Assembly (NCBI GenBank): GCA_000092065.1
Contig: CP000593.1
From: Ostreococcus lucimarinus
Lineage: Eukaryota
Strand: one strand, 5' to 3'
DNA length: 64,000 nt
In this document: one piece after another, positions 4,350-48,853 of the stretch
Layout: each line of letters opens with the position of its first letter
Numbering within the stretch: the stretch's first letter is position 1
Position numbers and translations under genes: made by a program
The notes under the pieces: model-generated
Told to the model about the DNA's origin: nothing
Database searches by the model: none
What the model saw: the letters and a program-made list of their open reading frames with translations, nothing else

Positions 4350-4600
4350 GTCCGTCCGTCGATCGCGTCGCGATCTGCGCGCGCGCGCGTCGTCGCCGCC
4401 GATCGCTCGAACCTCGAGCCATCGATCGTTCGCGCAGATTTAACCGCATCGCGAGGTTCGATCGACGACGCCGTCCGTCGATCGCGCGTCGCGATCCGCG
4501 CGCGCGCGCGATCGTCGCCGCCGATCGCTCGAACCTCGAGCCATCGATCGACTCCACCGATTTCACCGCATCGCGAGGTTCGATCGACGACGCGCGCGCG
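4350..4600. repeat. Tandem duplication, about 122-bp unit x2, GC-rich, containing CGATCG palindromes (..GCCGCCGATCGCTCGAACCTCGAGCCATCGATCG..ACCGCATCGCGAGGTTCGATCGACGACG..)
   Basis: The core GCCGCCGATCG recurs at about 4395 and 4517, a 122-nt offset, with nearly identical flanks. It lies in the 1.26-kb intergenic region upstream of the ANTH gene. Confidence 0.8.
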
Positions 4601-4989
4601 GGTTCGCCGGCGCGCGGGCGCGCCCGCGCCGGCACAGACGCGCGCGGTCGCGTCGGCGCGCGATGCCGCTCCGGTTGCAGAAAAAGGCGTCGCGCGTCGT
4701 GCGCGCGGTGGCGGAGGAGGTCCAGGTCGCGCGCGGCGTCGGCACGCGCACCGATAAGCGCGGGAACGCGAAGACGGCGCTGTGGGAGCGCGGCAAGGTG
4801 CGATCGAGCGGCGGATTGGCGCGTGTCTCGATCGGCGCGACGAGGATCGCGCGCGAACGCGCGACGCGAGGCGACGCGCGACGCGCGCGCGCGGAGACGC
4901 GAAGGGAAACCCGCGCGGGAGATTCGGGGAGACGCGCGAGAGACTGACGGGACGCGGACGCGACGCAGGCGAAACTCGCGGCGACGGCG

Positions 4990-6813
4990 GTGGAGAAGGA
5001 GTTCGCCGAGACGCAGTTGGCGTTTAGCAAGGCGACGAATTTCGATGACGTGCCGCCGAAGGAGAAGCACGTGCTGGCGCTGGTGCGCACGTGCGGAGGC
5101 GCGGGCGGAGGGAGCTCGAGGGATCGGGCGTTCGTGTTGGAGACGTTGGCGAGACAGGTGCGGAAGTGCGCGCCGTGGAGGACGATGCTGAAGACGCACG
5201 TGTTGCTGCACAGGTTGATGCGGGAGTGCGAGGGAGGGGGGTTTAAGGATGACTTCTTCAGGTTTTTGGAATTTTTATCTCGGAAAACGTACGGGCCGAA
5301 AGAACAGACGCTGTTTAACATTCGCTACTGGAAGGACGAGACCAACAAGGACGCGTACGAGTTGTCGGGGTGGACGCGCGCGTACGCGGCGTACCTCGAA
5401 GAGCTGTGCGCTTTGAATGAGTTCATCCCGAGCCTCGTAGGAAACGTGAGTGGCGCGGTGACGACGACGACAAACGGCGAGGCGCGAGCGGTGGTGGCGA
5501 ATCCGTTGAAAGATTGTGATTTCGCGACGTTGATCAAGGTTTTGCCCTTGGTGCAGACGCTCGTGCGACGCATCACGGATTGCGCGCCAACATCTACGAC
5601 GCTGCAGAAAAATGCCGTCTCGCGATACGCCGTCGGACTCGTCGCAAAGGATAGTTTCTTGGTGTATCGCGTCATGAACGAGGGCATCATAAACCTGGTG
5701 GACAAGTACTTTGAAACGAGCAAAGTCGAGGCGGAGAAAGGGTTGGTGATTTTCAAAAAGTACTTGACGCAAATCGAAGACTTGCAACGATTTTACGACA
5801 CGTGCGAAGCGTGCGCGGCGGTGGAAAACGCAGTCGTCAAGCTTGAAGCACCCCCTGCGACGTTTTTGAAGAGCATGGAAGAGTACTTCGAATCGGCGCC
5901 TCGCGAAGGCTTGCCTCTTCGCGAGCGGCGGTTGGGCGCGACATCTTCGACGACGGCGAACAATGCACGAGCGAATGCGGTGGGGTCGACAATGTTGGCG
6001 ATCGACGTCCCCGCCAACAACGCGGACTTTATCAGTACCACTGCTGCGCTACCGCCGGTGGAGCCGTTGAATGCGCTCGATGCGCTCAGTCAGCTTGATT
6101 TAGGTACGCCGAGCCCAACGAGCAAAGACGATGTTTTTAGCTCAAACGCGCTGCCCGCGCCGACGCAACCGCCGGCGTTAGCGCCGGTCGCGCCCGCAGC
6201 TTCGAGCAGTACAAGCGCACTTGATTCTTTCTCCGAGTCAATCGCTCCGGCGGTGCCGACGGAACCCTCTGCGGTGGCGTACAACCCATTCGGAGCGAAC
6301 CCATACGGCGGCGCCCCGCAAATGGTGCCGGCGGCTCCGCAAACGGCGCCGGCGCCCCAAGCAAAATCGCCGAGAAGCACGAACCCATTCGGAAATAACC
6401 CGTTCGGTACACCACAGCCTCAAAGTTTGGACAAGAGCGCACTCAATGACTTATACGCGCAAGCTCCAGCGTCACCCAGGAGTGGCCATGGCATGAGTTC
6501 CATGGCACCGCCGCAACACATCAATCCGAGCTTTATGCAAGCGCCGCCCAACAGCGCCTTGCAGCGGCAGCAAGTTGGCGCACCTCAGCTAGCGCTACCG
6601 ATGGCTGGTGTGCAGTATCCACAACAATATCCGCAGATGGCGTTCCCCCAGCACCATCAGCAGATGGGATACCCGCAGCAGCATCCGCAGATGGGATATC
6701 CCCAGCGCCCGGCGGCTGAACCACCGTTGCACCCGGCGTTCGCCAACCCTCACCAAGGCGGCAGTCCAAGTTCTAGCGCTCCATCACCGCAGAACTCCGG
6801 CAGTTTGATTTGA
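4990..6813 (+). CDS. ANTH-domain clathrin assembly protein (AP180/CALM/PICALM-like) with a long Pro/Gln-rich unstructured C-terminus carrying NPF motifs
   Basis: The N-terminal ~280 aa have the ANTH fold (..KATNFDDVPPKEKHV..LHRLMREC..). The C-terminal half is low complexity, with repeated NPFG (NPFGANPYG, NPFGNNPFG) and MGYPQQ repeats typical of endocytic adaptors. Confidence 0.75.
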   Translation: MEKEFAETQLAFSKATNFDDVPPKEKHVLALVRTCGGAGGGSSRDRAFVLETLARQVRKCAPWRTMLKTHVLLHRLMRECEGGGFKDDFFRFLEFLSRKTYGPKEQTLFNIRYWKDETNKDAYELSGWTRAYAAYLEELCALNEFIPSLVGNVSGAVTTTTNGEARAVVANPLKDCDFATLIKVLPLVQTLVRRITDCAPTSTTLQKNAVSRYAVGLVAKDSFLVYRVMNEGIINLVDKYFETSKVEAEKGLVIFKKYLTQIEDLQRFYDTCEACAAVENAVVKLEAPPATFLKSMEEYFESAPREGLPLRERRLGATSSTTANNARANAVGSTMLAIDVPANNADFISTTAALPPVEPLNALDALSQLDLGTPSPTSKDDVFSSNALPAPTQPPALAPVAPAASSSTSALDSFSESIAPAVPTEPSAVAYNPFGANPYGGAPQMVPAAPQTAPAPQAKSPRSTNPFGNNPFGTPQPQSLDKSALNDLYAQAPASPRSGHGMSSMAPPQHINPSFMQAPPNSALQRQQVGAPQLALPMAGVQYPQQYPQMAFPQHHQQMGYPQQHPQMGYPQRPAAEPPLHPAFANPHQGGSPSSSAPSPQNSGSLI

Positions 6814-6898
6814 TCTAGAGCGACACGACGAGAATAAGCACGCAAATGAACAACCAAACGCGCGCGCTTCCCTTTGTCGCCACAGCGCGCCTCGCGCC

Positions 6899-8368
6899 AT
6901 GTCGCTCGCCGTCCATCTCTCATCCACCCGCACGCGCGGCGCGACGCCGTTCGCGCGCGTCAATCGCGCAAAACAGTCGCGCGTCGCATACCAGCGCGTC
7001 TCCACGCGCGCATCGCGACGCGTCGCGACGCTAGTTCGCGTTGTCCCGCTCAAAAAGTGCTGCGCTTTTTCGCAGTCATCCTCGCGCCGTTCCGCTACGC
7101 GCGCGCGCGCGACGGCCGCCGCGCCGCGCGACGCCGACGATGCGAATAAAATCATCCTCGCCCTCGGCGTGGCCATGCTGCTCGCGAGCGCGGACCGAAC
7201 GATTTTCGCCGCCGCGGCGCTGAGCCTGAAGGCGGAGCTGGGCATGTCCATGAAGGATTTGGCGCTCGCGCAGAGCGCGTTTCTGTGGGGATACGGCGTC
7301 ACGCAGCTCGCGGCGGGCGCGTCGAGCGATCGATTCGGTGGCGCGAAGGTGTTGCTCGGTGGGCTGTGCGTGTGGTCGATCGCGGTGGCGGTGACGCCGC
7401 TGAGCTCGATGACGACGGCGCCGGTGCTCGCAGTCGTGGCGGCGCGATTTTTGTTCGGCGCGGCGAGCGGATGCGCGCTACCGGCGTCCGCAGCGGCGGT
7501 TGCGGCGCACGTGCCGGCGGAGCGACGGTCGGGCGCGTTGTCAACGATATTTGCGCTGTTTAACATTGGTTCGGCGTTCGGGCTCGCGGCGGCTGGAAGT
7601 TTGATCACGCAGTTTGGGTGGCGAGCGATTTTCTACGGCTTCGGCGCGTTTGGCGCGGCGTGGGCCGTCGCCGCCTACGCCGCAATGCCGCAGAGCGTGA
7701 AAACTTTCGTCCCTAGGGTACCGAAGGTGAGCGAGTTGAAGGATGAAAACGGCGAGCAAATGACCGAGTTGTCGTCCGAAGTTGCGACGCAGCTCGTTGC
7801 GCTGTTGTGGTGTCACGTCGTCGTGAACTGGGGGTTCATGATTTTACAGTCATGGCTGCCGGTGTATCTCGCGAACGACTTGGGAATGTCCATCGCGAGC
7901 TCTGGGATCCTCGGCGCTTTACCGTGGGTATTCACCGCGTTCATGTCATTTAGCTCGGGACAGGTGGCGGATAAGTTGATTAGTCGAGGGATGGAGCGAT
8001 GGAAAGTGCGTCGATTGGCGATGAACGTCGCCACCATCGGTCCCGCCCTGGGATTATTCGCGTTGAAGTACACCACCACCGCGAGCGTCGCGTTGGCGTG
8101 CATCGTCGCCACGCTCGGTCTTCAAGCCGTCGCGGTTGCGGGGTATCACAGTTACCTTCAGGACGTCGCTCCGTCTCGCGCGGGCGCTATTCTCGGTTTC
8201 ACAAACACGGTCGGCGTCGTCGGTTCAATCGTCGCCAACATGGTGACTGGCGCGAGCGTCGAGGCGACGGGGTCGTTTCAAGCGACATTTTTGTACACCG
8301 CGGCGATGTACGCGAGCTCTTGCTTTGTTTGGAATGCATTCTTGAAGGGTGAGCAGTTGTTTCCGTAA
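6899..8368 (+). CDS. Major facilitator superfamily transporter, SLC17/anion-phosphate (PHT4-like) type, with an N-terminal organellar transit-peptide-like extension
   Basis: 489 aa. The N-terminal ~90 aa are S/R/A-rich, followed by 12 predicted TM helices. The MFS signature region reads ..LAQSAFLWGYGVTQLAAGASSDRFGGAKVLL.. Confidence 0.6.
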   Translation: MSLAVHLSSTRTRGATPFARVNRAKQSRVAYQRVSTRASRRVATLVRVVPLKKCCAFSQSSSRRSATRARATAAAPRDADDANKIILALGVAMLLASADRTIFAAAALSLKAELGMSMKDLALAQSAFLWGYGVTQLAAGASSDRFGGAKVLLGGLCVWSIAVAVTPLSSMTTAPVLAVVAARFLFGAASGCALPASAAAVAAHVPAERRSGALSTIFALFNIGSAFGLAAAGSLITQFGWRAIFYGFGAFGAAWAVAAYAAMPQSVKTFVPRVPKVSELKDENGEQMTELSSEVATQLVALLWCHVVVNWGFMILQSWLPVYLANDLGMSIASSGILGALPWVFTAFMSFSSGQVADKLISRGMERWKVRRLAMNVATIGPALGLFALKYTTTASVALACIVATLGLQAVAVAGYHSYLQDVAPSRAGAILGFTNTVGVVGSIVANMVTGASVEATGSFQATFLYTAAMYASSCFVWNAFLKGEQLFP

Positions 8369-8370
8369 AA

Positions 8371-8800
8371 AATAAGATGTAAATATAAAAAATGAATCCG
8401 TCACTCTTAGACTGCGATCGCGTTCCGATGCGTGTCGGAAATGGTAGACTGCCAGCGGAGCCATCAAAGGCTTCCTAATCGTCAACCGCACGATCCGCCC
8501 CAAAGTAAACTTTAATAAGATGTAAATATGAAAAATGAATCCGTCACTCTTAGACTGCGATCGCGTTCCGATGCGTGTCGGAAATGGTAGACTGCCAGCG
8601 GAGCCATCAAAGGCTTCCTAATCGTCAACCGCACGATCCGCCCCAAAGTAAACTTTAATAAGATGTAAATATGAAAAATGAATCCGTCACTCTTAGACTG
8701 CGATCGCGTTCCGATGCGTGTCGGAAATGGTAGACTGCCAGCGGAGCCATCAAAGGCTTCCTAATCGTCAACCGCACGATCCGCCCCAAAGTAAACTTTG
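8371..8800. repeat. Tandem repeat, 143-bp unit x3.0, comparatively AT-rich satellite-like array
   Basis: The unit TAAGATGTAAATATGAAAAATGAATCCGTCACTCTTAGACTGCGATCGCGTTCCGATGCGTGTCGGAAATGGTAGACTGCCAGCGGAGCCATCAAAGGCTTCCTAATCGTCAACCGCACGATCCGCCCCAAAGTAAACTTTAA starts at 8373, 8516 and 8659. The only difference is an A/G change in copy 1. It contains a short hairpin, TTCCGA-TGCGTG-TCGGAA. Confidence 0.95.
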
Positions 8801-8841
8801 AAAGTTATGCACTGATGCGTGTGCGATGATTATCTCGCGAA

Positions 8842-10359
8842 TTACACGAGAATCATGGTGGCGATGGCGACGAAGGTCACCGTCACAAGATTCGCGCCGA
8901 TGCGCGCCGCGGGAGACGCGCCGAGAAGCGCGGCGACGGCGACACGTTGCGCGGAAAGCTGCGCGAGGCACAGACCGTTGACTCGGGCGTTGTCCCACAG
9001 CGTACACTCATTCGCCGTCGTTTTCACGACGACGTCGTTGCTGTTGATGTCTCGGAAGAATCGAGGGCATCCTTCTTGAAGAGTCGTGACGCCCGCGACG
9101 CCATTCAGCCACGACAGACGCACGAGATCTTGCACGACCACAGCCGGATGCACGTAAGAGTCCTCGAACCACGTCAACGACTCGGTCGGCCAAAAGGTTG
9201 AGTGTGAGTACAAGGGATCACCATCGCTGACGTGCTTGTCCAATCGCAAGATCATACCAGTCGACGGTGAAAGACTGGGAAGACCCGGCGCTTCGTTGAA
9301 GGCAAGATTCGTGATGACGGCGGTCTTCGTCGCATCCGTGCTCGGCGTAGTGAACCACGATTCATCGATGACGACGGCAACATTTGCCATATCGGTGAGA
9401 AACGCCGCTTTGCTTGGATACTTGTAATAGCCCGCGCTCGACGTCGCCGCGCTCGGAATGTGAATGCTCAAGCCCGCGGCGGTACAAATGTCTCGCTTGT
9501 AGTCGTCCCAAGTGATTTCGTACGCAGCAGTAACCCAGGCGCACTTGTAACCGGTTGGAATGCCACCTCGAGCTTGCGCCGCGGCGACTTGCCCCGCCAT
9601 GTAATTCCAACGTTCGTACTGGTCGGCGTAGTAACCGCTCGCTTGGGTCTCCTTGTTGAAAAACAAAGAGATAAATTTGATGAACGAAAGTCGCTCGAGC
9701 ATGCCGAGATTCGTGTGCGACGGCGTGAACACCACATCCTTGTCCGAGTTCGAATACCCGGTGTCCCACTCATCCGTGATGACCATCTCCACATTATTGG
9801 TCGAAATACTGTTGTGCCACAGCGTGTAATTGTACTTCGACGCACCCAAATAAATCACGTGACTCGCCGCGAGCGTTCCGTCCTCCTCCGCCTTTTGCAC
9901 GCACGGCGCGTGCACGTACGCCGGATCGATCAACTTCAACTTATCTCGCAATCCGAGCTGTTCGAGGTATCCGACCGCGACGCTCATTCCCGTGGCCACG
10001 CGTTTCACCGGCACCGAGAAGAATCGCGCACCCGCGGGGAACGCCGACCCGTCGACGTCCTGCGTCGGCTGCGTCGTCCCGCACTGGTACAGCACGTACG
10101 TCAACGCCTCGACGCCCGGCAGCGCCTTCGTGCGCACCACCTTGAACGTCTCGGCGTAGGTGACATTGAACCCTTCGCCACCGTCCACGAACGCGCTCGC
10201 GCTTCCCGAGGTGAGATTCCCCGGGGACAAGCGCGCGGCGGCGGGAAAGAAATCTGTCCCGCTCGGCGTCGACGACGTCGCGCAGGCTTGGTTATCCACC
10301 GCCGAGGCGCGCGCGGTGCCGACGAGGGCGAGGAGGGTGAGCAGACGTACGCACGACAT
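8842..10359 (-). CDS. Secreted, probably GPI-anchored or C-terminally membrane-anchored protein with a bacterial class-III periplasmic (solute)-binding-protein-like fold (FhuD/BtuF/FecB type). Candidate algal cobalamin-acquisition (CBA1-like) or siderophore-binding (FBP1-like) protein.
   Basis: A signal peptide (MSCVRLLTLLALVGTARASA) begins at the second Met of the ORF 8842..10419. The PBP-like N-lobe motif reads ..FFSVPVKRVATGMSVAVGYLEQLGLRDKLKLIDPAYV.., and the second lobe ..NNVEMVITDEWDTG..SFIKFISLFFNKETQASGYYADQYERW... The C-terminus is a hydrophobic tail (..LVTVTFVAIATMILV). Confidence 0.55.
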   Translation of the reverse strand: MSCVRLLTLLALVGTARASAVDNQACATSSTPSGTDFFPAAARLSPGNLTSGSASAFVDGGEGFNVTYAETFKVVRTKALPGVEALTYVLYQCGTTQPTQDVDGSAFPAGARFFSVPVKRVATGMSVAVGYLEQLGLRDKLKLIDPAYVHAPCVQKAEEDGTLAASHVIYLGASKYNYTLWHNSISTNNVEMVITDEWDTGYSNSDKDVVFTPSHTNLGMLERLSFIKFISLFFNKETQASGYYADQYERWNYMAGQVAAAQARGGIPTGYKCAWVTAAYEITWDDYKRDICTAAGLSIHIPSAATSSAGYYKYPSKAAFLTDMANVAVVIDESWFTTPSTDATKTAVITNLAFNEAPGLPSLSPSTGMILRLDKHVSDGDPLYSHSTFWPTESLTWFEDSYVHPAVVVQDLVRLSWLNGVAGVTTLQEGCPRFFRDINSNDVVVKTTANECTLWDNARVNGLCLAQLSAQRVAVAALLGASPAARIGANLVTVTFVAIATMILV

Positions 10360-10600
10360 CGCGCGAGCGGGCGTCGGCGAGCCGTGGTGTGGCGGAACGT
10401 TGCGATGGGCGGCAGACAAGTTGACGTCTCGTTCGCGAAAAAAACCCTAAAGGTTGCTAGAATAAACGTTCACAAAGCGGTAAATCTTGGAGATAACGCG
10501 CGGCGAGCTAGTGAAGTGCCGCGCGAGATGATGCAAGATGGGATAAGATGAGAGAACGTCGCGCGAGGCGACATCGCGAGGGCGAAGAGCTCATCGAAAC

Positions 10601-12049
10601 TCACGCCGACTTTGATTTGACGCGCTGAGATCCGTGCACGTAATAGTGCTTCCCGACGTCGTTCAAGTTGCCGAACGTCGCCTTCCAGGCCCCATAATAC
10701 GTCAAGACCTTGTAGTTTAAGTTCCACTTCTTCGCAAACGGGACGAATCGGCGGGAGACTTCGGGTTGGCGGAACTGAGGCATATCCGGGAACAGGTGAT
10801 GGATGACTTGGCAGTTCAAGTAGCCCATCAACCAGTTGACGACGCTGTTGTTCGGATTGATGTCGATCGTGTGATCGACGGCGTATCGCACCCACGAGAG
10901 GTGTTTATCGCTCGGCACGACATCCAAGTGCGTGTGAGACGTGGAAAAGTGCGCGAACAAGTAACATCCGCTCGCCCACATCGTCGCCGCGAACAAGCCG
11001 TACGAGGCGATCCAGGAGTAGCCGGTGACGGCTTTGATAACCGCCGTGCGAATGACGTGCGCGGAAAACATCCAAGCCGCTTCTTCGAAGCTTTTGCGTC
11101 GCAGCGCGTTACGCGGGTGCAAGACGAACATCCAGAAGAACAAAACCATACCGGACGTCACGGGCACGAAGGTCCACGCTTGAAGGCGCAACCACAACTT
11201 ACTGAATCCCCGCGGGCGATTTTCTTCAACCGCGGAGTTGAAGAACGCCACCGTGGGAGTGGTGTCGAGATCCATATCGTGTCGCACCTTTTGGGGCGTC
11301 GCGTGATGCTTGTTGTGCATGTTGTTCCACATGTCGCCACTCGACGCCAAGCCGAACCCCGCGGCGAAGGCTTGGATTCGCTTGTCCCACCAAATGTTTC
11401 CAGTCAACGAATTGTGCCCACCCTCGTGCTGCACCCAACCGCATCGCGCGCCGAAGAAACACGAGTACACGATCACGGAAGCGACGTGCCAACGCGCGTG
11501 CATCAACGCCGTGCCGAGCGCGAACATCGCCGCGAGCTCGGCGAATCGATACGCCACGTGCGCCGGCGAGGGCTTAAAAAATCCCTCACGCTCCAATTCC
11601 TTGCGCCACTGCGCGAAATCCTTCAGCATCGCCTCATCTTCGATCGGTTCCCGCGTCGCCGCGTCCACTGGCTTATGCGGCAACGCCGCCAACGCCTTGC
11701 GCGCCTTTTTCGACCGATAATGAAACTCTTTAAAAGCCTCCGTCGCGTCCGCTCCCGTGTTCGACAGCATGTAATAAATAACCGATCCTCCGGGATGCTT
11801 AAAATCCGTCACATCGTATTCCACGCCTTCGATCGTCACGTACCGCCGTTCGAACGTCTTCGCGATCGCGTGCGGCTCCAACTCTTTCGTCCACGCCGTG
11901 ACGCTCGCGTTTCGAGTCTTCTTCCCCGCGTCTTCGCTTCCCATCCCGACCGTCACCGTCGGCGTTCCGCCTTCGCTCAGCGACGACGACGAGCTCGTGC
12001 GTTCGTTCGCCATCGTTCGCGATGTGCCTTCGGTCGTTTCGACGCACAT
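10601..12049 (-). CDS. Front-end Delta-6 fatty acid desaturase with N-terminal cytochrome b5 domain (Ostreococcus-type acyl-CoA Delta-6 desaturase)
   Basis: 482 aa. It has the cyt-b5 HPGG motif (..DFKHPGGSVIYY..) and three histidine boxes (QHEGGH, HNKHH, QVIHH, with Gln replacing the first His as in front-end desaturases). It is near-collinear with the published O. tauri Delta-6 desaturase, which begins MCVET.., recalled from memory and not aligned. Confidence 0.9.
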   Translation of the reverse strand: MCVETTEGTSRTMANERTSSSSSLSEGGTPTVTVGMGSEDAGKKTRNASVTAWTKELEPHAIAKTFERRYVTIEGVEYDVTDFKHPGGSVIYYMLSNTGADATEAFKEFHYRSKKARKALAALPHKPVDAATREPIEDEAMLKDFAQWRKELEREGFFKPSPAHVAYRFAELAAMFALGTALMHARWHVASVIVYSCFFGARCGWVQHEGGHNSLTGNIWWDKRIQAFAAGFGLASSGDMWNNMHNKHHATPQKVRHDMDLDTTPTVAFFNSAVEENRPRGFSKLWLRLQAWTFVPVTSGMVLFFWMFVLHPRNALRRKSFEEAAWMFSAHVIRTAVIKAVTGYSWIASYGLFAATMWASGCYLFAHFSTSHTHLDVVPSDKHLSWVRYAVDHTIDINPNNSVVNWLMGYLNCQVIHHLFPDMPQFRQPEVSRRFVPFAKKWNLNYKVLTYYGAWKATFGNLNDVGKHYYVHGSQRVKSKSA

Positions 12050-14035: not shown

Positions 14036-14282
14036 CGCGCCGCGGTGTGCCGTCGATCGATCGCTCGGCGCGCGCGCGCGTCGACCGCGCGAGGTTCGCG
14101 GCGCGCGCGCGATCGACGACGCGAGGGTCGCGCGATCGCGCGTCGATCGATCGCGCGCGCGGCCGCGCGACCGCGTCGATCGATCGCGCGCGCGCCGCGT
14201 CGATCGATGCGTCGTCGATCGACGCGCGCGCGCGATCGACGACGCGGCGGTCGCGCGATGGCGCGCGCGATCGATCGCGCGC

Positions 14283-14300
14283 GGTGGTGACGTCACCACC
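14283..14300. promoter_or_regulatory. Perfect 18-bp palindrome GGTGGTGACGTCACCACC with a TGACGTCA (C-box/CRE-like, bZIP-type) core, ~75 bp upstream of the HCF136 ATG in a divergent promoter
   Basis: Read directly in the sequence at 14283-14300. It lies between the divergently oriented coiled-coil gene (start 14035) and HCF136 (start 14374). Confidence 0.5.
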
Positions 14301-14373: not shown

Positions 14374-15657
14374 ATGACGACGAGCGCGACGGCGACGACG
14401 GCGACGACGGCGACGGCGCGACGCGCGACGGCGCGCGCGCGCGACGCGGGGTCGAGACGGGCGCGAGGGGGGGCGCGATCGCGCGCGCGAGCGACGACGC
14501 GGACGACGACGGCGACGCGGGCGACGACGGAGGGCGCGGGGGAGGACGCGAGCGCGGAGGGGAAGATGCCGCGACGCGCGCTGGCGGTGAAGACGGCGAC
14601 GCTCGTCGCGGCGCTGAGCGCGCTGCCGATGGATAAGCGCGCGCTCGCCGAGGGTTCGATCGAGAGCTCGTACTGGGAGCAAGTGGAGCTGCCGCTGGAG
14701 CCGGGAGTGATTCTGCTGGACATCGCGTTCAGTTCGAACGATCCCAAGCACGGGTTCTTGCTCGGGACGAGGCAGACGGTGCTCGAGACGAAGGACGGAG
14801 GGAAGACGTGGGACGTGCGCGACTTGAGCGGATTGTTGGACGACGACGTGAATTATCGCTTTAATAGCGTGTCGTTTTGCGGCGACGAGGGATGGATCAT
14901 CGGTAAGCCGGCGGTGTTGTTGCACACGACCGATGGTGGCGCGAACTGGGAGCGCGTCGGGTTGAGCCCGCGACTTCCGGGGGCGCCGGTGTTGATCACG
15001 GCGGTGCAAGATAACGGCACGGCTGAGATGGTGACGGACGAGGGGGCGATTTACTTCACCAAGGACGCGGCGCGCAACTGGAAGGCTGCGGTCGAGGAGA
15101 CCGTCTCCGCGACGTTGAACCGCACGGTGAGCTCTGGTATCACCGGCGCTTCGTATTACACGGGCACGTTCTCCACGATCTCGCGCAACGACAACGGCGA
15201 GTACCTCGGTTTAAGCTCTCGCGGGAACTTTTACATGTCTTGGGCGCCGGGTCAGGCGTACTGGCAACCGCACAACAGAACGTCCGCGCGTCGGGTGCAA
15301 AGCATGGGCTGGCGCCCGGATGGCGGGATTTGGGAGCTTACCCGCGGCGGTGGCATCTTCTTCTCCGCCGAAACCGGCCTCCCGGAGGAGGATTCTGAAT
15401 TCAACGAAGGTAGAATCGGCTCTCGCGGCTTTGGTCTGCTCGACTTGGGTTACACCCCGAGCGGCAAGACGTTCTGGACCGTGGGTGGCTCTGGAAGCGT
15501 GTTTTACTCTACCGACGCCGGTAAGTCATGGAAGCGCGACCGCGGCACGGACAACGTCGCGGCGAACCTCTACAACGTCAAGTTCCAAAGCGAAGATCAA
15601 GGATTTATTCTCGGCAACGACGGTATTCTCTTGCGTTTCACCGGCGCCAAGTTGTAA
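14374..15657 (+). CDS. HCF136: Photosystem II stability/assembly factor HCF136 (Ycf48 homologue), BNR/beta-propeller, with S/T/A/R-rich plastid transit peptide
   Basis: The sequence ..YWEQVELPLEPGVILLDIAFSSNDPKHGFLLGTRQTVLETKDGGKTWDV.. and the repeated propeller blades (TTDGGANWERV, TKDAARNWKAA, STDAGKSWKRD) match HCF136/Ycf48. The start is taken at the internal Met (MTTSATATTATTA..) because the upstream ORF part is simple-sequence DNA. Confidence 0.85.
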   Translation: MTTSATATTATTATARRATARARDAGSRRARGGARSRARATTRTTTATRATTEGAGEDASAEGKMPRRALAVKTATLVAALSALPMDKRALAEGSIESSYWEQVELPLEPGVILLDIAFSSNDPKHGFLLGTRQTVLETKDGGKTWDVRDLSGLLDDDVNYRFNSVSFCGDEGWIIGKPAVLLHTTDGGANWERVGLSPRLPGAPVLITAVQDNGTAEMVTDEGAIYFTKDAARNWKAAVEETVSATLNRTVSSGITGASYYTGTFSTISRNDNGEYLGLSSRGNFYMSWAPGQAYWQPHNRTSARRVQSMGWRPDGGIWELTRGGGIFFSAETGLPEEDSEFNEGRIGSRGFGLLDLGYTPSGKTFWTVGGSGSVFYSTDAGKSWKRDRGTDNVAANLYNVKFQSEDQGFILGNDGILLRFTGAKL

Positions 15658-20764: not shown

Positions 20765-21060
20765 GAAAACGATCGATCGATCGATCGAGGTTTAAAACGG
20801 CGCGCGGTCGAAACGCGCGCGAGGGTCGACGCGCGCGAGAACGATCGATCGATCGCGCGGTCGATCGGTCGATCGATCGAGGTTTAAAACGGCGCGCGGT
20901 CGACGCGCGCGCGAGGGTCGACGCGCGCGAGAACGATCGATCGATCGCGCGGTCGATCGGTCGATCGATCGAGGTTTAAAACGGCGCGCGGTCGAACCGC
21001 GCGCGAGGGTCGACGCGCGCGAGAACGATCGATCGCGCGGTCGATCGGTCGCGCGGTCGG
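20765..21060. repeat. Tandem repeat, 92-bp unit x~3.2 (GAGGTTTAAAACGGCGCGCGGTCGA(A)CGCGCGCGAGGGTCGACGCGCGCGAGAACGATCGATCGATCGCGCGGTCGATCGGTCGATCGATC), in the divergent TLK / FKBP53 promoter
   Basis: GAGGTTTAAAAC recurs at 20787, 20879 and 20971. The third copy carries a 4-bp deletion. It sits between the TLK start (20749, minus strand) and the FKBP start (21131, plus strand). Confidence 0.9.
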
Positions 21061-21130: not shown

Positions 21131-22252
21131 ATGTTCTGGGGCGCGCGACTCGAGCCGGGGGTGTGGACGCCGTACGTCCCGCCGCCGGACGTCGACGTGC
21201 GGCTGCACGTGTCGCAGGCGACGGCGGCGAGCGACGCCCTCGAGGACGGCGCGCGCGTCGTGATCAAGATGCGATGCGAGACCGACGACGCGGTGCTGCG
21301 AGCGGCGGCGGGCGCGGACGATGACGACGATGACGATGATTCGTCGACGGACGATTCGTTCGAGCGGGAGGAGTACCGCGTGTGCGCGCTGATCGGTGGG
21401 CGAGTGGAGACGTGCGGGTTGGATTTGGTGCTGGACGAGTACGCGGAGTTCACGGTCGAGGGCGCGTGCGGGGCGCACTTGACGGGGTATTACATGCCGG
21501 AGTACGGCGAGGGGGATGAGTTGGACGAGGACGACGTGTACGGCGACGAGGGGGACTCGGATTCGGACGAGGAGGAGGAGATGATGACGACGGGCGACGA
21601 CGACGAGTCCGACTCGGAAGACGACGACTCCGAAGACGACGACTCCGAAGACGACGACTCCGAAGACGACGACTCCGAAGACGACGACTCCGAAGACGAC
21701 GACTCCGAGTCCGAGTCCGAGTCCGAGTCCGAGCCCGAAGGCGTCACTCGTAAGGGTGGTGTGAAGATCGTCGAGATGACCGAAGACGAGTCGGCGCGCT
21801 CGGCGAAGAAGCGCGAGGCGGAAACCAAGCCCGCGAAGACCCCCGAACCGAAGAAGCGAGCAGTGGGGGCGAAACCGGAATCTGCGTCGAAGAAACCGGA
21901 GACACCCAAGCGCGTGCACAAGAATGGCATGGAAATCATCAACACCTTTGCCACGAAGAACACCAGCGCGAAAGTCGCCGCCGGCGGCAAAAAAGTGGCG
22001 ATGAAGTACATCGGAAAGCTCCCGAGCGGTAAGATTTTCGATCAAACCAAAGGCAGCGCTACTTTTAAGTTCCGCTTGGGGGTGGGCGAAGTCATCAAGG
22101 GCTGGGACGTCGGCGTCGAGGGCATGCGCGAGGGCGACAAGCGCACGCTCATCATTCCCAGCGCCATGGGTTACGGTAAAAAAGGCATCAAGGGCGTCAT
22201 CCCCGGCGGATCCGCGCTGCACTTCGACGTCGAGCTCGTCAAGGTTTTCTAA
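21131..22252 (+). CDS. FKBP53-type nuclear peptidyl-prolyl isomerase / histone chaperone (N-terminal nucleoplasmin-like domain, acidic D/E/S tracts, basic linker, C-terminal FKBP domain)
   Basis: The N-terminal MFWG.. nucleoplasmin-like signature is present. An 18-nt tandem repeat codes (DDSEDD)n. The C-terminal FKBP domain reads ..KYIGKLPSGKIFDQT..FKFRLGVGEVIKGWDVGVEGMREGDKRTLIIPSAMGYG..LHFDVELVKV. Confidence 0.8.
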   Translation: MFWGARLEPGVWTPYVPPPDVDVRLHVSQATAASDALEDGARVVIKMRCETDDAVLRAAAGADDDDDDDDSSTDDSFEREEYRVCALIGGRVETCGLDLVLDEYAEFTVEGACGAHLTGYYMPEYGEGDELDEDDVYGDEGDSDSDEEEEMMTTGDDDESDSEDDDSEDDDSEDDDSEDDDSEDDDSEDDDSESESESESEPEGVTRKGGVKIVEMTEDESARSAKKREAETKPAKTPEPKKRAVGAKPESASKKPETPKRVHKNGMEIINTFATKNTSAKVAAGGKKVAMKYIGKLPSGKIFDQTKGSATFKFRLGVGEVIKGWDVGVEGMREGDKRTLIIPSAMGYGKKGIKGVIPGGSALHFDVELVKVF

Positions 22253-33171: not shown

Positions 33172-35346
33172 GTGGCCCAGCGCGCGCGCGACCGCGGCGC
33201 GCACACCCCGACGCCGCGGCGACGCGACGACGCGATGGCGAGCGCGCGAGGCGCGACGACGGCGACGCGCTCGCGCGGCGTCGCGACCGCGACGCGCGTC
33301 GCGACGCGACGACGACGCGCGACGCGGGCGAACGCGACGAACGACGCGCGCGATGGGTCGAGCAAAGCGGCGCTCGCGGCGAAGATCGCGGCGCTCAGGG
33401 CGGAGAACGAGGCGATCAAGGCGCGGATGACGACGCGAGGCGCGGAGGGAAGCGGCGCGGCGCGCGAGGGGCGCGGGGGGGGGGTAGCGACGATGCGGGG
33501 GGAGACGAAGGCGGAGGCGAGGACGACGGCGAAGGCGGAGGCGGAGGCGTTCGCGGGCGATCTTCCGAGCGCGTACGAGGGGGAATCGGAATACGGCGCG
33601 AAGGCGAAGGCGGCGGCGGCGAAGAAGGCGATGGGGGGGGAGGAGACGGAGGCGACGACGGCGACGACGGCGACGACGGATACCGCCATGTTCGCGGAGG
33701 CGTTACCGCCGCCGACGACGACGGCGCCGACGACGGCGCGACCGCCGGTGGAGAAGACGGATAATCCGATGCAAATCGTGTTCGTGTCGAGCGAGGTGGC
33801 GCCGTGGTCGAAGACTGGGGGGCTAGCGGACGTGTGCGGTTCTTTGCCGCAGGCGCTCGTCGCGCGCGGGCACCGCGTCATGGTCATCGCGCCCAAGTAT
33901 CAAAACGGCTCAAAGTCGGACGTTTTGTACGAAGGCGCGTTCGATACGTGCGTCAAGGCGAAGCTCGGATGCTTCGGTGGCGAACAAGAGGTGGGTTACT
34001 TTCATCAAATGAAGAACGGCGTCGATTACGTCTTCGTCGATCATCCGTCGTTCCACCGCAAGGGTGGACTGTACGGAGATTCGTACGGCGTGTACGGCGA
34101 CAACCAGTTCAGATTCACTTTGTTGTCCCACGCCGCGTGCGAAGCGCCGCTTCAGTTGCCATTCGCGGAGTGCGGTGGTTATTACGGACAAGACGTCGTC
34201 TTCGTCGCCAACGACTGGCACGCCGGTTTGGTACCGACTTTGGTGGCGTCCAAATACCGTCCTCACGGCGTCTACAAGGATGCGCGCACGATTTGCGCCA
34301 TTCACAACATTTTGCACCAAGGCGCGGAACCGTCGACGACGTTCCCGAACCTCGGCGTGCCGAACGAGTGGTACGGCGCGCTCGAGTACCAGTACCCCGA
34401 GCACATGCGCGCGCACGAACTCGATGAGGGTAGAGTGGTGAACATTTTGAAGGGTGCGATCGCGACGTCCGACCGCGTGTTGACCGTCTCTCAAGGGTAT
34501 GCGTACGAAATCACCACCCCAGAAGGTGGTCAGGGCATGGAAGGTTTGCTCTTGAGTCGCCAAAACCGCTTGGACGGCATCGCGAACGGCATAGACATGG
34601 ATGAGTGGAATCCGGAGGCGGATGCGGATTGTGCGGCGGCCTTTACGGTGACGGACATGTCCGGAAAGCTCGAGTGCAAACGCGCGCTGCAGAAGGAACT
34701 GGGCTTGCCGCAACGTGACGACGTGCCATTGATGGGCTTCATCGGACGTTTGGATTGGCAAAAGGGTCCGGATTTGCTCCAGAACGCGCTCCACGACATG
34801 ATGCGCGAGGACGTCCAGGTGGTGATGCTCGGCAGCGGTTTGCCCGAGCTCGAAGACTTCATGCGTTGGGCCGAGAGCACGTACCCGGACAAGTTCCGCG
34901 GTTGGGTCGGTTTCTCCGTTCCCATGGCGCACCGCATTACCGCTGGTTGCGACATTTTGCTCATGCCTTCGCGCTTCGAGCCGTGTGGCTTGAATCAACT
35001 CTACGCCATGCGTTACGGTACGTTGCCCATCGCGCACGCCACGGGCGGTTTGAAGGACACCATCACCGCGTACAACGCGTTCGGCGACGCCGACAAGGTG
35101 TTGGCGGGCACGGCCGATTACAATCAGGGCGAAGGCGTCGGCACGGGTTGGTTGTTCAAAGACATGAACGCCGATGCTCTGATGTGGGCCGTTCGTTCGG
35201 CGTGCGACGTGTATCGCTCCGAACCGAAGATGTGGCGAGCGATGCAAACGCAAGCGATGACGCAAGATTTGTCCTGGGACAACGCCGCGACAAAGTGGGA
35301 AAAGGTTTTCGAGTGGTCTAAGATCGACCCGCCGCACTGCGGTTAG
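33172..35346 (+). CDS. Starch synthase, GT5 family (soluble SSI/SSII-like) with coiled-coil/transit N-terminal extension
   Basis: The glycosyltransferase 5 N-domain motif reads ..MQIVFVSSEVAPWSKTGGLADVCGSLPQALVARGHRVMVIAPKY.. The GT1-like C-domain reads ..RFEPCGLNQLYAMRYGTLPIAHATGGLKDTI.. Confidence 0.85.
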   Translation: MAQRARDRGAHTPTPRRRDDAMASARGATTATRSRGVATATRVATRRRRATRANATNDARDGSSKAALAAKIAALRAENEAIKARMTTRGAEGSGAAREGRGGGVATMRGETKAEARTTAKAEAEAFAGDLPSAYEGESEYGAKAKAAAAKKAMGGEETEATTATTATTDTAMFAEALPPPTTTAPTTARPPVEKTDNPMQIVFVSSEVAPWSKTGGLADVCGSLPQALVARGHRVMVIAPKYQNGSKSDVLYEGAFDTCVKAKLGCFGGEQEVGYFHQMKNGVDYVFVDHPSFHRKGGLYGDSYGVYGDNQFRFTLLSHAACEAPLQLPFAECGGYYGQDVVFVANDWHAGLVPTLVASKYRPHGVYKDARTICAIHNILHQGAEPSTTFPNLGVPNEWYGALEYQYPEHMRAHELDEGRVVNILKGAIATSDRVLTVSQGYAYEITTPEGGQGMEGLLLSRQNRLDGIANGIDMDEWNPEADADCAAAFTVTDMSGKLECKRALQKELGLPQRDDVPLMGFIGRLDWQKGPDLLQNALHDMMREDVQVVMLGSGLPELEDFMRWAESTYPDKFRGWVGFSVPMAHRITAGCDILLMPSRFEPCGLNQLYAMRYGTLPIAHATGGLKDTITAYNAFGDADKVLAGTADYNQGEGVGTGWLFKDMNADALMWAVRSACDVYRSEPKMWRAMQTQAMTQDLSWDNAATKWEKVFEWSKIDPPHCG

Positions 35347-46522: not shown

Positions 46523-48853
46523 TTACAATTTCGCGCCGCACTCGTAACAAAACTTGAGCGCGACGGCGCCTACGGGATGGTTGAGCGCGCACGCGCACGC
46601 GGGACACGAAATAGACGATGATTTTGCGACGTGGTTTTCCTTGAGCGGATCTCGCGCGTCGGCGGCGACGGCGTCGAACGCGAGCGCCTGGTGACGTTGC
46701 GACTGTTGCGCCGCCGCCGCCGCGCGCGGACGCGCGATGGCGTCGCGCTCGATGATCGAGGACGATGTCGTCGTCGCCGTCGAAGGTTTGCGTATACCGA
46801 GCGCCAAGAAAGTCTTCTCCCTGCGTTCTTCGATCTGTCGCTTGCGTTCGGCGCGACGCTGCGCTCTCGCGTCCTCATCCGTTTCGCTGATGAGCTGACG
46901 GAACGACTTCTCACGCGCCTCGGCGTCTTCGACGACGTTCGATCGACCTATTCTCGGTAGAATGGTCGCCGCCGCGGCGTTTTGATCGAATTGCGACATC
47001 GCGACGTCGATTGATTTCGAAAACGTCTCGATGAGGAACCCTTCGACGAGGGCGTCTTGTTCGCCAACACGACGAGACGTCGGATTTGACACGCTGGATT
47101 CGTTCACGTCCATCAATCTATCCGCGATATCGTCGAATCGTAGCGCGTACGCGTGCGAGGCGGCGGTATTCGTAGCCTTCGTCGCGCCGGGATCGACGCG
47201 AATGCCGACGCGCGTCGCTTCGCCGCCGCGATCCCATCGCCGCGCATACGCGGCGTACGCATCGCCTTCGCTCGATCTGGTCCCACGCGACGCCGCAGCG
47301 ACGGCGGAAAAGATTTGCGAGCTCTTCACGGCACCGATCTCGGGCGAGATCGCTTCGTCGAGCGGTACCAAATTCGGTTCGGCGTCTTTGTACACGTCTT
47401 CGTTCACGTCTTCGACGACGTCTGCGTCTTCCACGATATCCTTGAGCTTGACGCTCTGTCGAGCGCTGAGTAAACCGAGCGCGTGATCCGCTTCGTCTAA
47501 TGCGTTTTGACGTGCGAGTGTGCTCATGTTGTCCATCGCGACGTTGACTTTGTTCAACCCACTCGCGCCCGCGCTCGCGGAGAGACGCCGCAACAATTCG
47601 GGCACCGTCGCGAACGCACGAAGATGAAACTCTAACCCATCGGCACCGCGGCGCACGGGATAGAGCAGCATCGGCGTAGCGTCGAGTTGTCCGTCGCTCG
47701 ACACGTCGCGGTACTGACGCCGCGCCGCCGTGCCGCTCATCCATTGAGTCTTCACTACCATCGCCGGGACGTCGCCTGGCGTCGGCGCGTCCGCGAACGC
47801 CGCGCTCCACGACGAAAACAACGCCTCGCGCACGTCTCGCGACTCCGGGACGTCGTCCATGCGCACGCACAGAGATAACGTCGAGCTCAAGTACACGCTC
47901 GGGATGTCGCGCGCGCGCACAATTTCCACCACGCGCAACGCGCTCGCTCTAGGCGGCGCGGGCGCGGGCGGTCTCGGCGCCGAGCTCGTCGTCGCCGTCG
48001 CATCCATCGTCTCCTCCTCCCCATCATCCGCGCTCGCTCGCGGCTGCAAACGCGTCGCGCGTAACCCGTGAATTTCTACCCTATCTTTCCCGCTCGACGA
48101 CGCGAACGCCAACGTTCCTCGCCACCGCTCGCCCAAATCCACCGTCTCGTCGTCGCCGACGTTTGAAATCGACGCCCCCGCGGCGTCCGCCACCGCTCGC
48201 GCCATCTCCGACCCCCCCCCCTCGCCGCACAGCACCACGCGACACCGCGCGAACGTCCCGAAGCACGCCTTCGCGCGTCGAAACACGCCGTACGCCGCGA
48301 CCATTCCCGTCGTCCACGCCGCGCCGCGTTTAAAATCGCCGACAGCCGCCGCGTTCGGCGCGAACCAAATCACATCCACCCACACCCCTCGCTCGCGATT
48401 CGCTCGCTCCATCGCCCCGCACGCGCTCGCCGCCGCCTCCTCCGCGCTCGCGCCGCGTCCGCCTTCGCCGTTTTCCCGCGACAATTCAATCCTCGCGTCT
48501 CGCAGCGTCTCCCGCAGCGTCTCCGCGTCGACCCCCGTCGTCGTCTCGCTTTCCCGCCCATCGCTCGCGAGCGCGCGCGCGATCCCGGTCCCCCACGCGC
48601 GCGCGACGTATCGCGCTCCCCTCGACGCCGCGCCGAGGCCGTTCGCGCGCAGCGCGTCGTCGTCGTCGTCGTTCGCGCGCGTCGTCCGCGTCGCGCACCC
48701 ATCGTCGTCGTCATCTTCCCCGTCCCGCATCGCGCGTTCGCACGCCGCGACGCCGTCGAGCGCGTCGATCGCGTCCGCGCACCACCGCGCGCTCGCGGCG
48801 CGCGCGTCGAGGTCGCTCGCGGCGTCGCCGACGAGCGCGACGACCAAACGCAT
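46523..48853 (-). CDS. Hypothetical 776-aa protein with possible N-terminal vWA-like region and C-terminal zinc ribbon ([27 protein letters not shown])
   Basis: Long non-repetitive ORF with good coding composition. I recognise no family. Confidence 0.4.

Follow-up and report, generated by a model that had tools for sequence, protein, structure and literature searches.

The array and its two convergent genes

The subject of this study is a three-copy tandem repeat in the picoalga Ostreococcus lucimarinus, which lies within a 64,000-nucleotide (nt) stretch of contig CP000593.1 (assembly GCA_000092065.1), hereafter the window. The array has a unit of 143 bp and separates two convergent genes, one encoding an MFS transporter and the other, on the minus strand, a homologue of cobalamin acquisition protein 1 (CBA1). 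Each unit carries an element that is conserved in every Ostreococcus-type lineage recovered and that is most likely read as RNA from the CBA1 strand. The features of the locus are as follows.

6899..8368, plus strand: MFS_1 / ACS-family (SLC17-like) transporter of 489 amino acids (aa) (Pfam PF07690, E 2.3e-50); source name 'ACS family sodium-dependent inorganic phosphate cotransporter'
8369-8398: first linker, immediately after the MFS stop
8371..8799: tandem array, 3 x 143 bp (copies 8371-8513, 8514-8656 and 8657-8799), from Tandem Repeats Finder, repeat search and alignment
8387: sole difference between the copies, A in copy 1 versus G at 8530 and 8673, in the linker (TATAAAAAA versus TATGAAAAA)
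8654..8684: A/T-rich 31-nt linker, TTTAATAAGATGTAAATATGAAAAATGAATC, with an identical linker at 8511-8541
8795-8807: 13-bp indel polymorphism, ACTTTGAAAGTTA, at the CBA1-side edge of the array
8797..8841, minus strand: proximal 3' flank of CBA1, from the stop to the first element copy
8842..10419, minus strand: CBA1 homologue, open reading frame (ORF) of 525 aa from a TTG
10601-12049, minus strand: delta-6 desaturase, an exact match to O. lucimarinus CCE9901 DAA34893.1

Tandem Repeats Finder ranks the array as the highest-scoring repeat of the window (period 143, 3.0 copies, 99% matches, 0 indels, score 851), confirming the near-perfect three-copy array that an earlier note on this DNA had described at 8371-8800; the start given there is exact, and the true end is 8799, one base less. 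Alignment of all three copies bears out the single A/G difference, and the unit is indeed low in GC (46.9%, versus 61.9% for the window). The inverted repeat TTCCGA..TCGGAA (8423-8440, 8566-8583 and 8709-8726) and a repeated motif, TAGACTGC, which occurs twice in each unit, were found as described, as was the placement between the two stop codons, with the array starting 2 nt past the MFS TAA and ending 42 nt short of the stop codon of the minus-strand ORF. It had also been claimed that spacers elsewhere are short and GC-rich; this received a spot check only, which agreed in that the neighbouring spacers measure 86 and 182 bp and a high GC content marks the other intergenic tandem repeats.

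Each 143-bp unit is composed of a 112-nt element and a 31-nt A/T-rich linker. All lineages have, on the plus strand, an A-rich stretch separating the MFS stop from the element, and the linkers are likely to be a zone of 3'-end processing signals. The duplication junction, …AAACTTT joined to AATAAGATG…, shows no microhomology (0 nt). Within the window, a 62-nt piece of the unit has no match beyond the three copies (up to 3 mismatches, with 0 matches expected by chance), and BLASTN of the unit returned nothing further.

The minus-strand gene, which the earlier note had labelled 'PBP-like', is a CBA1 homologue. Its product has a signal peptide, a periplasmic-binding-protein (PBP) fold and a C-terminal hydrophobic tail. 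Pfam gave nothing significant for this protein; an AlphaFold2 model (mean pLDDT 78, pTM 0.80) submitted to Foldseek matched cluster-A PBPs for Fe-siderophores and haem (E 1e-8 to 1e-6), so that the label was well chosen. Translation probably starts at M21 (position 10359), giving 505 aa, and Sayer et al. (PMC10828217, Supplementary Table S4) list the protein read from Met21 (MSCVRLLTLLALVG…; MSCVRLL...) as the O. lucimarinus hit of the CBA1 hidden Markov model. Motifs FFNKE (253-257) and WFED (417-420) correspond to the conserved residues F214 F215 N216 E218 and W394 F395 E396 of CrCBA1; in our protein alignment (A5), F253, E257 and W417 are invariant and F254, E419 and D420 nearly invariant. 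BLASTP against the N-terminal 111 aa of CrCBA1 gave E 3e-9. CBA1 is needed for B12 uptake in Chlamydomonas and Phaeodactylum, and the O. tauri entry of the same study lists METH and CBA1 only (PMC10828217). CBA1 is also the only known algal component of B12 uptake (PMC10828217; 10.64898/2026.08.07.738727).

Conservation and folding of the element

Other lineages were reached through homologues of the MFS transporter (70-80% identity) and of the neighbouring CBA1 protein (46-57%). In every Ostreococcus-type lineage recovered, the element occupies the same position between the MFS and CBA1 stops, and the gene order ANTH-domain protein, MFS, convergent CBA1 and desaturase is kept in all of those sampled (window 4990-12049 and contigs L011-L018, L061 and L064; ANTH and fatty-acid desaturase assigned by Pfam). 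The spacer blocks common to all lineages are CTTAGAC, GA(A)GACTGCCAGCGRAG, CTTCYTAATCGTC and TCCGCCCCA. The stems between these blocks differ among lineages in complementary fashion, one hairpin between blocks (P2) varies from 18 to ~75 nt, and the domain as a whole spans 107-169 nt with paired 5' and 3' ends. Core identity between lineages is 74-88%, whereas the flanking genes show 33-60% identity at fourfold-degenerate sites and 50-75% over their whole coding sequences. The element is conserved above the neutral level.

A covariance model (R1) built from the element alignment finds only the three copies in the window, all on the minus strand and at 67.9 bits each, and only orthologous elements in 229 kb of related loci. 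A motif scan for CTGCCAGCG…AATCGTCA…CCGCCCC over 241 million metagenome records returned 38 stretches, 17 of which are genuine and all located at the MFS/CBA1 locus; the remainder are chance matches in unrelated, apparently bacterial DNA. Three scans of viral contigs gave 0 matches, and a scan of prokaryote genomes gave nine, all due to chance (11-16 bits, or none, with the covariance model). At the MFS orthologue loci of Micromonas (L019-L022), neither the element, as judged with R1, nor a CBA1 neighbour is present. Because R1, run on the window and the 229 kb of related loci, and the scans match one orthologous locus only, the element is not dispersed, and the suggestion of a mobile-element remnant or dispersed satellite fails. 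Nor does confinement to a single locus make the unit a trivial duplication of 3' untranslated region (UTR) sequence, as the earlier note would have had it, since the unit carries a genus-conserved element with covarying helices.

The three copies, and the anatomy of the proximal copy in plus-strand coordinates, are given below.

8685..8796, minus strand: structured element, CBA1-proximal copy, 112 nt (R1 67.9 bits, E 1.4e-17)
8542..8653, minus strand: structured element, middle copy, proximal anatomy shifted by -143 (R1 67.9 bits)
8399..8510, minus strand: structured element, MFS-proximal copy, proximal anatomy shifted by -286 (R1 67.9 bits)
8685-8693 with 8788-8796: closing helix P0
8693-8698 (TTAGAC) and 8784-8788 (CCC(C)A): invariant strands
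8700-8708 with 8774-8784: helix P1
8709-8726: variable hairpin P2
8729-8735 with 8767-8773: helix P3a
8736-8742 / 8762-8766: invariant internal loop
8743-8761: hairpin P3

Minimum-free-energy (MFE) folds of eight lineages give one common minus-strand architecture, consisting of a long closing stem (P0, a GGGC/GUCU helix and P1, which together form a nearly continuous irregular stem of ~20 bp), a three-way junction, an arm made of P3a, the invariant internal loop and P3, and the variable hairpin P2. On the RNA strand the invariant loops read GACGAUUAG / CGCUGGCAGUC and UGGGGCGG / GCAGUCUAA, and each element contains GCAGUCU twice. Where close variants differ in P2, the substitutions lie in its loop or lengthen its stem. 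For the 143-bp unit folded on its own, the z-scores (-1.2 and -1.7) were not significant.

Run on a plain MAFFT alignment, RNAalifold recovered the outer helix, with exchanges among CG, UA and AU pairs, plus a hairpin. In plain MAFFT alignments the 5' strand of P1 is misplaced wherever a lineage has a long P2, and therefore N-padded, hand-registered alignments were used. In the core alignment of 21 pairs, 87.3% of cells are paired on the plus strand and 90.4% on the minus strand, and double-sided changes are seen in seven pairs (14 cells); none of 500 shuffles attained the covariation score, and controls in which partners were slid fall to ~30% pairing. Alignment A8, which is on the CBA1 strand and includes P0, contains 30 pairs with 88.8% of cells pairing, and 13 of these pairs (34 cells) have changed on both sides. 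Its covariation score is 0.318, compared to 0.158 +/- 0.017 for shuffles (0 of 500 reach it) and at most 0.116 for slid partners. P0 lies in otherwise unconserved flanks and six of its nine pairs covary; it needs no gaps, being anchored solely by adjacency to invariant blocks, and is the helix least exposed to alignment bias. An uncurated minus-strand alignment likewise gave P0, the invariant G.U-containing GGGC/GUCU helix, P3a and P3 with RNAalifold. Helices P0, P1, P3a and P3 are backed by compensatory changes.

When read on the CBA1 strand, the 30 pairs include 22 G.U cells versus two A.C cells, counts that would be reversed on the MFS strand, and the MFE is lower on the CBA1 strand in seven of eight lineages. 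Across lineages, the conserved GGGG core starts 14-53 nt past the CBA1 stop on that strand. In L061 this distance is 14 nt, and the closing-helix strand begins ~3 nt past the stop, which leaves no room there for a separate promoter on the CBA1 strand. Given the wobble asymmetry, the MFE bias and the nearness to the CBA1 stop, the element is most likely read from the minus strand, as part of the CBA1 3' UTR.

Copy number among natural strains

Public assemblies contain 144 blocks that encode exactly this MFS protein, residue for residue, and the orthologous spacer can therefore be read in many natural strains; the contigs examined are all metagenomic. Three copies are found in the window and in L006, which repeats the A,G,G allele pattern, and two in L029 (alleles A,G) and in the 206-kb contig L064 (alleles A,A). 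At least two copies, with an N gap, are present in L007 and L010, and a single copy in L001-L005, L008, L009, L039, L041 and L056. The single-copy 'form B' allele of L005 and L039 matches the expected progenitor of the window's array exactly. Since the sister lineages L030 (93% DNA identity) and L037 (~88%) are single-copy, the triplication is recent, as had been supposed from the near-identity of the copies.

The 13-bp indel sequence at the CBA1-side edge is present in the window, L005, L039 and the sister lineage L030, and is absent from L001-4, L008, L009 and L029. With the insert, the sequence makes a palindrome, CAAAGT-AA-ACTTTG, and both forms retain a 7-bp closing helix.

An independent two-copy state occurs in an O. 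tauri-like lineage (L017/L055). The P0 flanks match within each of the L017 copies but differ between the two, reading GAUCUUU/AAAGAUC and GUUUCUUU/AAAGAAAC, which shows that the module tolerates or benefits from multiplication. The two copies, at L017 4480-4985 (= L055 12171-12574), are identical 169-nt elements that lie 228 bp apart, with an unrelated linker of 63 nt between them. In contigs L015 and L016, which hold a single copy, the 5' flank of one L017 copy is fused to the 3' flank of the other; these contigs represent either a deletion allele or an assembly collapse.

The CBA1 gene is itself hypervariable in the O. lucimarinus-type population (L001-L010), where its product is 94.7-98.2% identical in amino acid sequence and 505-520 aa long and the MFS protein next to it shows 100% identity. 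Most of the variation falls in two patches, at alignment columns ~175-200 and ~275-300, and DNA identity is 99.8-99.9% to the left of the array versus 97.5-98.9% to the right. Between lineages, CBA1 is 38-56% identical versus 63-80% for MFS. Diversifying selection on a surface protein may underlie this variability. An apparent identity of only 74% to CBA1 (P0071) probably reflects frameshifts in a long-read contig whose DNA is 98% identical.

Role, alternatives and other repeats in the window

The explanation that we favour, and consider reasonably probable, is that the array represents a recent triplication of a cis-acting structured RNA of the CBA1 3' UTR. The 143-bp module would have its normal place directly 3' of the Ostreococcus CBA1 gene, where the element would influence the CBA1 mRNA in cis, be it through 3'-end formation, stability or translation. 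The invariant internal loops, held by P0, P1, P3a and P3, would be offered to a trans-acting factor, most likely a protein and less likely a small ligand such as cobalamin. In strain CCE9901 the whole module was recently duplicated twice in tandem. If the linker holds processing signals, most CBA1 transcripts would terminate beyond the proximal copy at 8685-8796, leaving the other two copies as near-neutral passengers or as back-ups in case of read-through; such neutrality would fit the observed polymorphism of one, two or three copies. That the element is transcribed in the CBA1 mRNA and regulates CBA1, that its factor is of the kind described, and that the extra copies are neutral, we infer from sequence.

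Several points weigh against this explanation. The sample amounts to about six independent lineages of one genus, all of them metagenome contigs, and the decisive alignments (A6-A8) are hand-registered, with N padding and with P2 masked, although they were cross-checked by RNAalifold on uncurated alignments. Folding z-scores of the element are modest: three lineages fall between -1.7 and -2.2, and a fourth reaches -4.9. The MEGAHIT k141 and SPAdes short-read contigs may collapse a 143-bp repeat, making the frequency of single-copy alleles uncertain. In addition, the conserved motifs are absent from the supplementary files, as far as these were accessible, of a survey of medium-size noncoding RNAs (ncRNAs) in O. 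tauri; such absence is uninformative for an element embedded in an mRNA, yet provides no positive support either.

Comparison to known classes of RNA gave no assignment. Rfam cmscan at E values up to 10 found no match at the element, either in window 8200-9000 or at six loci of other lineages. The cobalamin riboswitch models RF00174, RF01482 and RF01689 failed on either strand in this window region and the six other lineages, and no B12-box-like sequence occurs in the element. The thiamine pyrophosphate (TPP) riboswitch, RF00059, for which the CUGAGA / ACCUGA...GCG core was sought, had no Rfam match, nor did self-cleaving ribozymes (hammerhead, hairpin, twister, HDV-like and others). A hammerhead-type core (CUGANGA...GAAA) was rejected, as the GAUGA of some lineages is GGUAGA in O. 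lucimarinus. Boxes of C/D and H/ACA small nucleolar RNAs (snoRNAs; RUGAUGA/CUGA and ANANNA/ACA) are not conserved across lineages, and Rfam found nothing of either type. ARAGORN found nothing tRNA-like at the element. These results agree with the earlier note, which had seen no C/D, H/ACA or tRNA-like signature. Motifs required for TPP riboswitches, hammerhead, HDV-like and hairpin ribozymes, SECIS (AUGA...GA kink-turn) and Y RNA are absent or not conserved in the aligned lineages, and a template for TTTAGGG, sought for telomerase RNA, is lacking.

A riboswitch of a new, metabolite-sensing class in the CBA1 3' UTR, binding cobalamin or a metabolite of B12 status and switching 3'-end processing or stability, would account for the aptamer-like build of the element, with its multi-helix junction, invariant unpaired nucleotides, covarying stems and a peripheral stem of 18 to ~75 nt, as well as for its tie to a B12-uptake gene. 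Inspection of the sequence suggests, too, that the twice-present GCAGUCU could permit alternative pairings. However, no cobalamin, TPP or other riboswitch model matches O. lucimarinus or the six loci, a B12 box is missing, the element is found in one genus only, and 3' UTR elements of eukaryotes are mostly bound by proteins. We therefore regard a riboswitch as unlikely, even though TPP riboswitches exist in Mamiellales, including in 3' UTRs (PMC4260697). If it were correct, B12-responsive CBA1 expression would be explained without a protein sensor, the element would be the first eukaryotic riboswitch outside the TPP class and would supply the missing sensor of algal B12-responsive control, and its copy-number polymorphism would tune the B12 response. 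It is likewise improbable, in our judgement, that the element is a stable trans-acting small ncRNA, excised from the CBA1 3' region or independently transcribed, with P0 guarding its ends and the tandem copies providing gene dosage as in snoRNA or small nuclear RNA gene arrays. The paired ends do delimit a discrete domain of 107-169 nt, tandem duplication has occurred independently in two lineages, with the L017 copies keeping their own matched flanks, and the linker contains a TATA-like TATAAAAAA, though on the opposite strand. Nevertheless, the 14-nt gap of L061 leaves no promoter room on the favoured strand, there is no T-run terminator, conserved snoRNA box or Rfam match, the motif is absent from the accessible supplements of the O. 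tauri survey, and a single locus tied to one gene suits a role in cis better.

The constant position of the element between both stops in a very compact genome, its nearly continuous ~20 bp stem of P0, GGGC/GUCU and P1, and the A/T-rich, processing-like sequence on its flanks would also be expected of a shared 3'-end or termination device of the convergent MFS and CBA1 genes, such as an RNase III-type cleavage stem or a read-through roadblock. A generic terminator should recur, however, and other convergent pairs in the window and the fetched loci are without the element; furthermore, the invariant loops imply sequence-specific recognition, and the 22:2 wobble asymmetry argues that only one strand folds. 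We give such a device only a slim chance. The bidirectional terminator or insulator and the small-RNA locus proposed in the earlier note are unlikely; the wobble asymmetry puts the RNA on one strand, that of CBA1. Very improbable, and the least probable of all, is a functionless minisatellite derived from neutral 3' UTR or intergenic DNA, or a remnant of a mobile element or dispersed satellite. The near-identical copies do point to a recent event, the copy number is polymorphic, with the extras dispensable in many strains, and other intergenic tandem repeats exist in the window. Against this, conservation across the genus is higher in the core, which has compensatory changes, than in the coding DNA on either side, and the unit is confined to one orthologous locus, no dispersed copies having been found in the window, the 229 kb of related loci or the metagenome, viral and prokaryote scans. 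The array also ends without target-site duplication or conserved terminal repeats, and the short inverted flanks of P0 differ between lineages by compensatory change, unlike conserved transposon ends.

A structured cis element in the CBA1 3' UTR would have parallels in several known systems. TPP riboswitches (3' UTRs of plant THIC and of Micromonas B1-related genes; RF00059, McRose et al. 2014, PMC4260697) are likewise multi-helix RNAs in the UTR of vitamin genes, with invariant junction and loop nucleotides and a variable-length peripheral stem, and occur in the same algal order, but they show no sequence or covariance-model similarity to the element. Mamiellales use riboswitches, some in 3' UTRs of single-exon genes, the TPP riboswitches of Ostreococcus being found in the 5' UTRs of SSSP/SSSF and not at the CBA1 locus (PMC4260697). 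Natural eukaryotic riboswitches in the literature consulted are of the TPP class only. Bacterial cobalamin riboswitches (RF00174, RF01482, RF01689) are analogous in their attachment to B12-uptake genes (btuB/btuF-type), CBA1 being BtuF-like. These reside in 5' leaders and have a four-way junction, a B12 box and a kissing loop, whereas the element lies 3' of the stop, is built as a three-way junction, has two invariant internal loops and is matched by none of the three models. The iron-responsive elements (IREs) in the 3' UTR of the transferrin receptor are, similarly, structured tandem cis elements of a nutrient-uptake gene and are bound by a sensor protein that sets mRNA stability. IREs are hairpins of ~30 nt with a CAGUGN loop, compared to 107-169 nt for the element, and their multicopy arrangement is a fixed design, in contrast to the strain polymorphism seen here. 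Minisatellites share the head-to-tail order, the near-identity of copies and the variability in copy number among strains, but the 143-bp unit carries a complete element under purifying selection.

The known algal response to B12 has been placed at the promoter of METE, and the sole riboswitch in that study is an engineered TPP device (PMC10828217). No natural RNA element at CBA1 is described in any of the consulted papers that mention both CBA1 and riboswitch. The element is apparently an undescribed candidate RNA family from a eukaryote, without a match in Rfam, and its sequence context makes it a candidate regulator of B12 acquisition in B12-using picoalgae. A conserved RNA domain attached to CBA1 in a transformable model genus offers a testable handle on algal B12 control, for which the natural one-, two- and three-copy alleles are ready material for dosage experiments. 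It also shows that a repeat resembling junk in a single genome can represent copy-number variation of a functional element.

Examination of 3' ends in the window showed that TGTAA overlaps the stop codon of three long ORFs (8842-8846, 15653-15657 and 46523-46527). TGTAA lies within 40 nt of the stop in six of 29 long ORFs, compared to ~0.6 expected from its overall frequency, which suggests a minor 3'-end signal, confounded by A/T-rich 3' flanks; as a general poly(A) signal it was dropped, being weakly supported at 6 of 29.

Other tandem repeats of the window are located at 4352-4629, 14051-14283, 20770-21051 and 33193-33351, with units of 81-123 bp in 2-3 copies of 78-95% identity. These are GC-rich with CGATCG/CGCG motifs, unlike the 143-bp array, and the first (4352-4629) sits within a long ORF. 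Short-period repeats at 21610-21708, 55924-56052 and 59289-59559 have units of 15, 12 and 39 bp, respectively, in 6.6-10.8 copies. All three are inside long ORFs, the 39-bp array within an ORF of 2147 codons at 55204-61644, and are presumably coding repeats.

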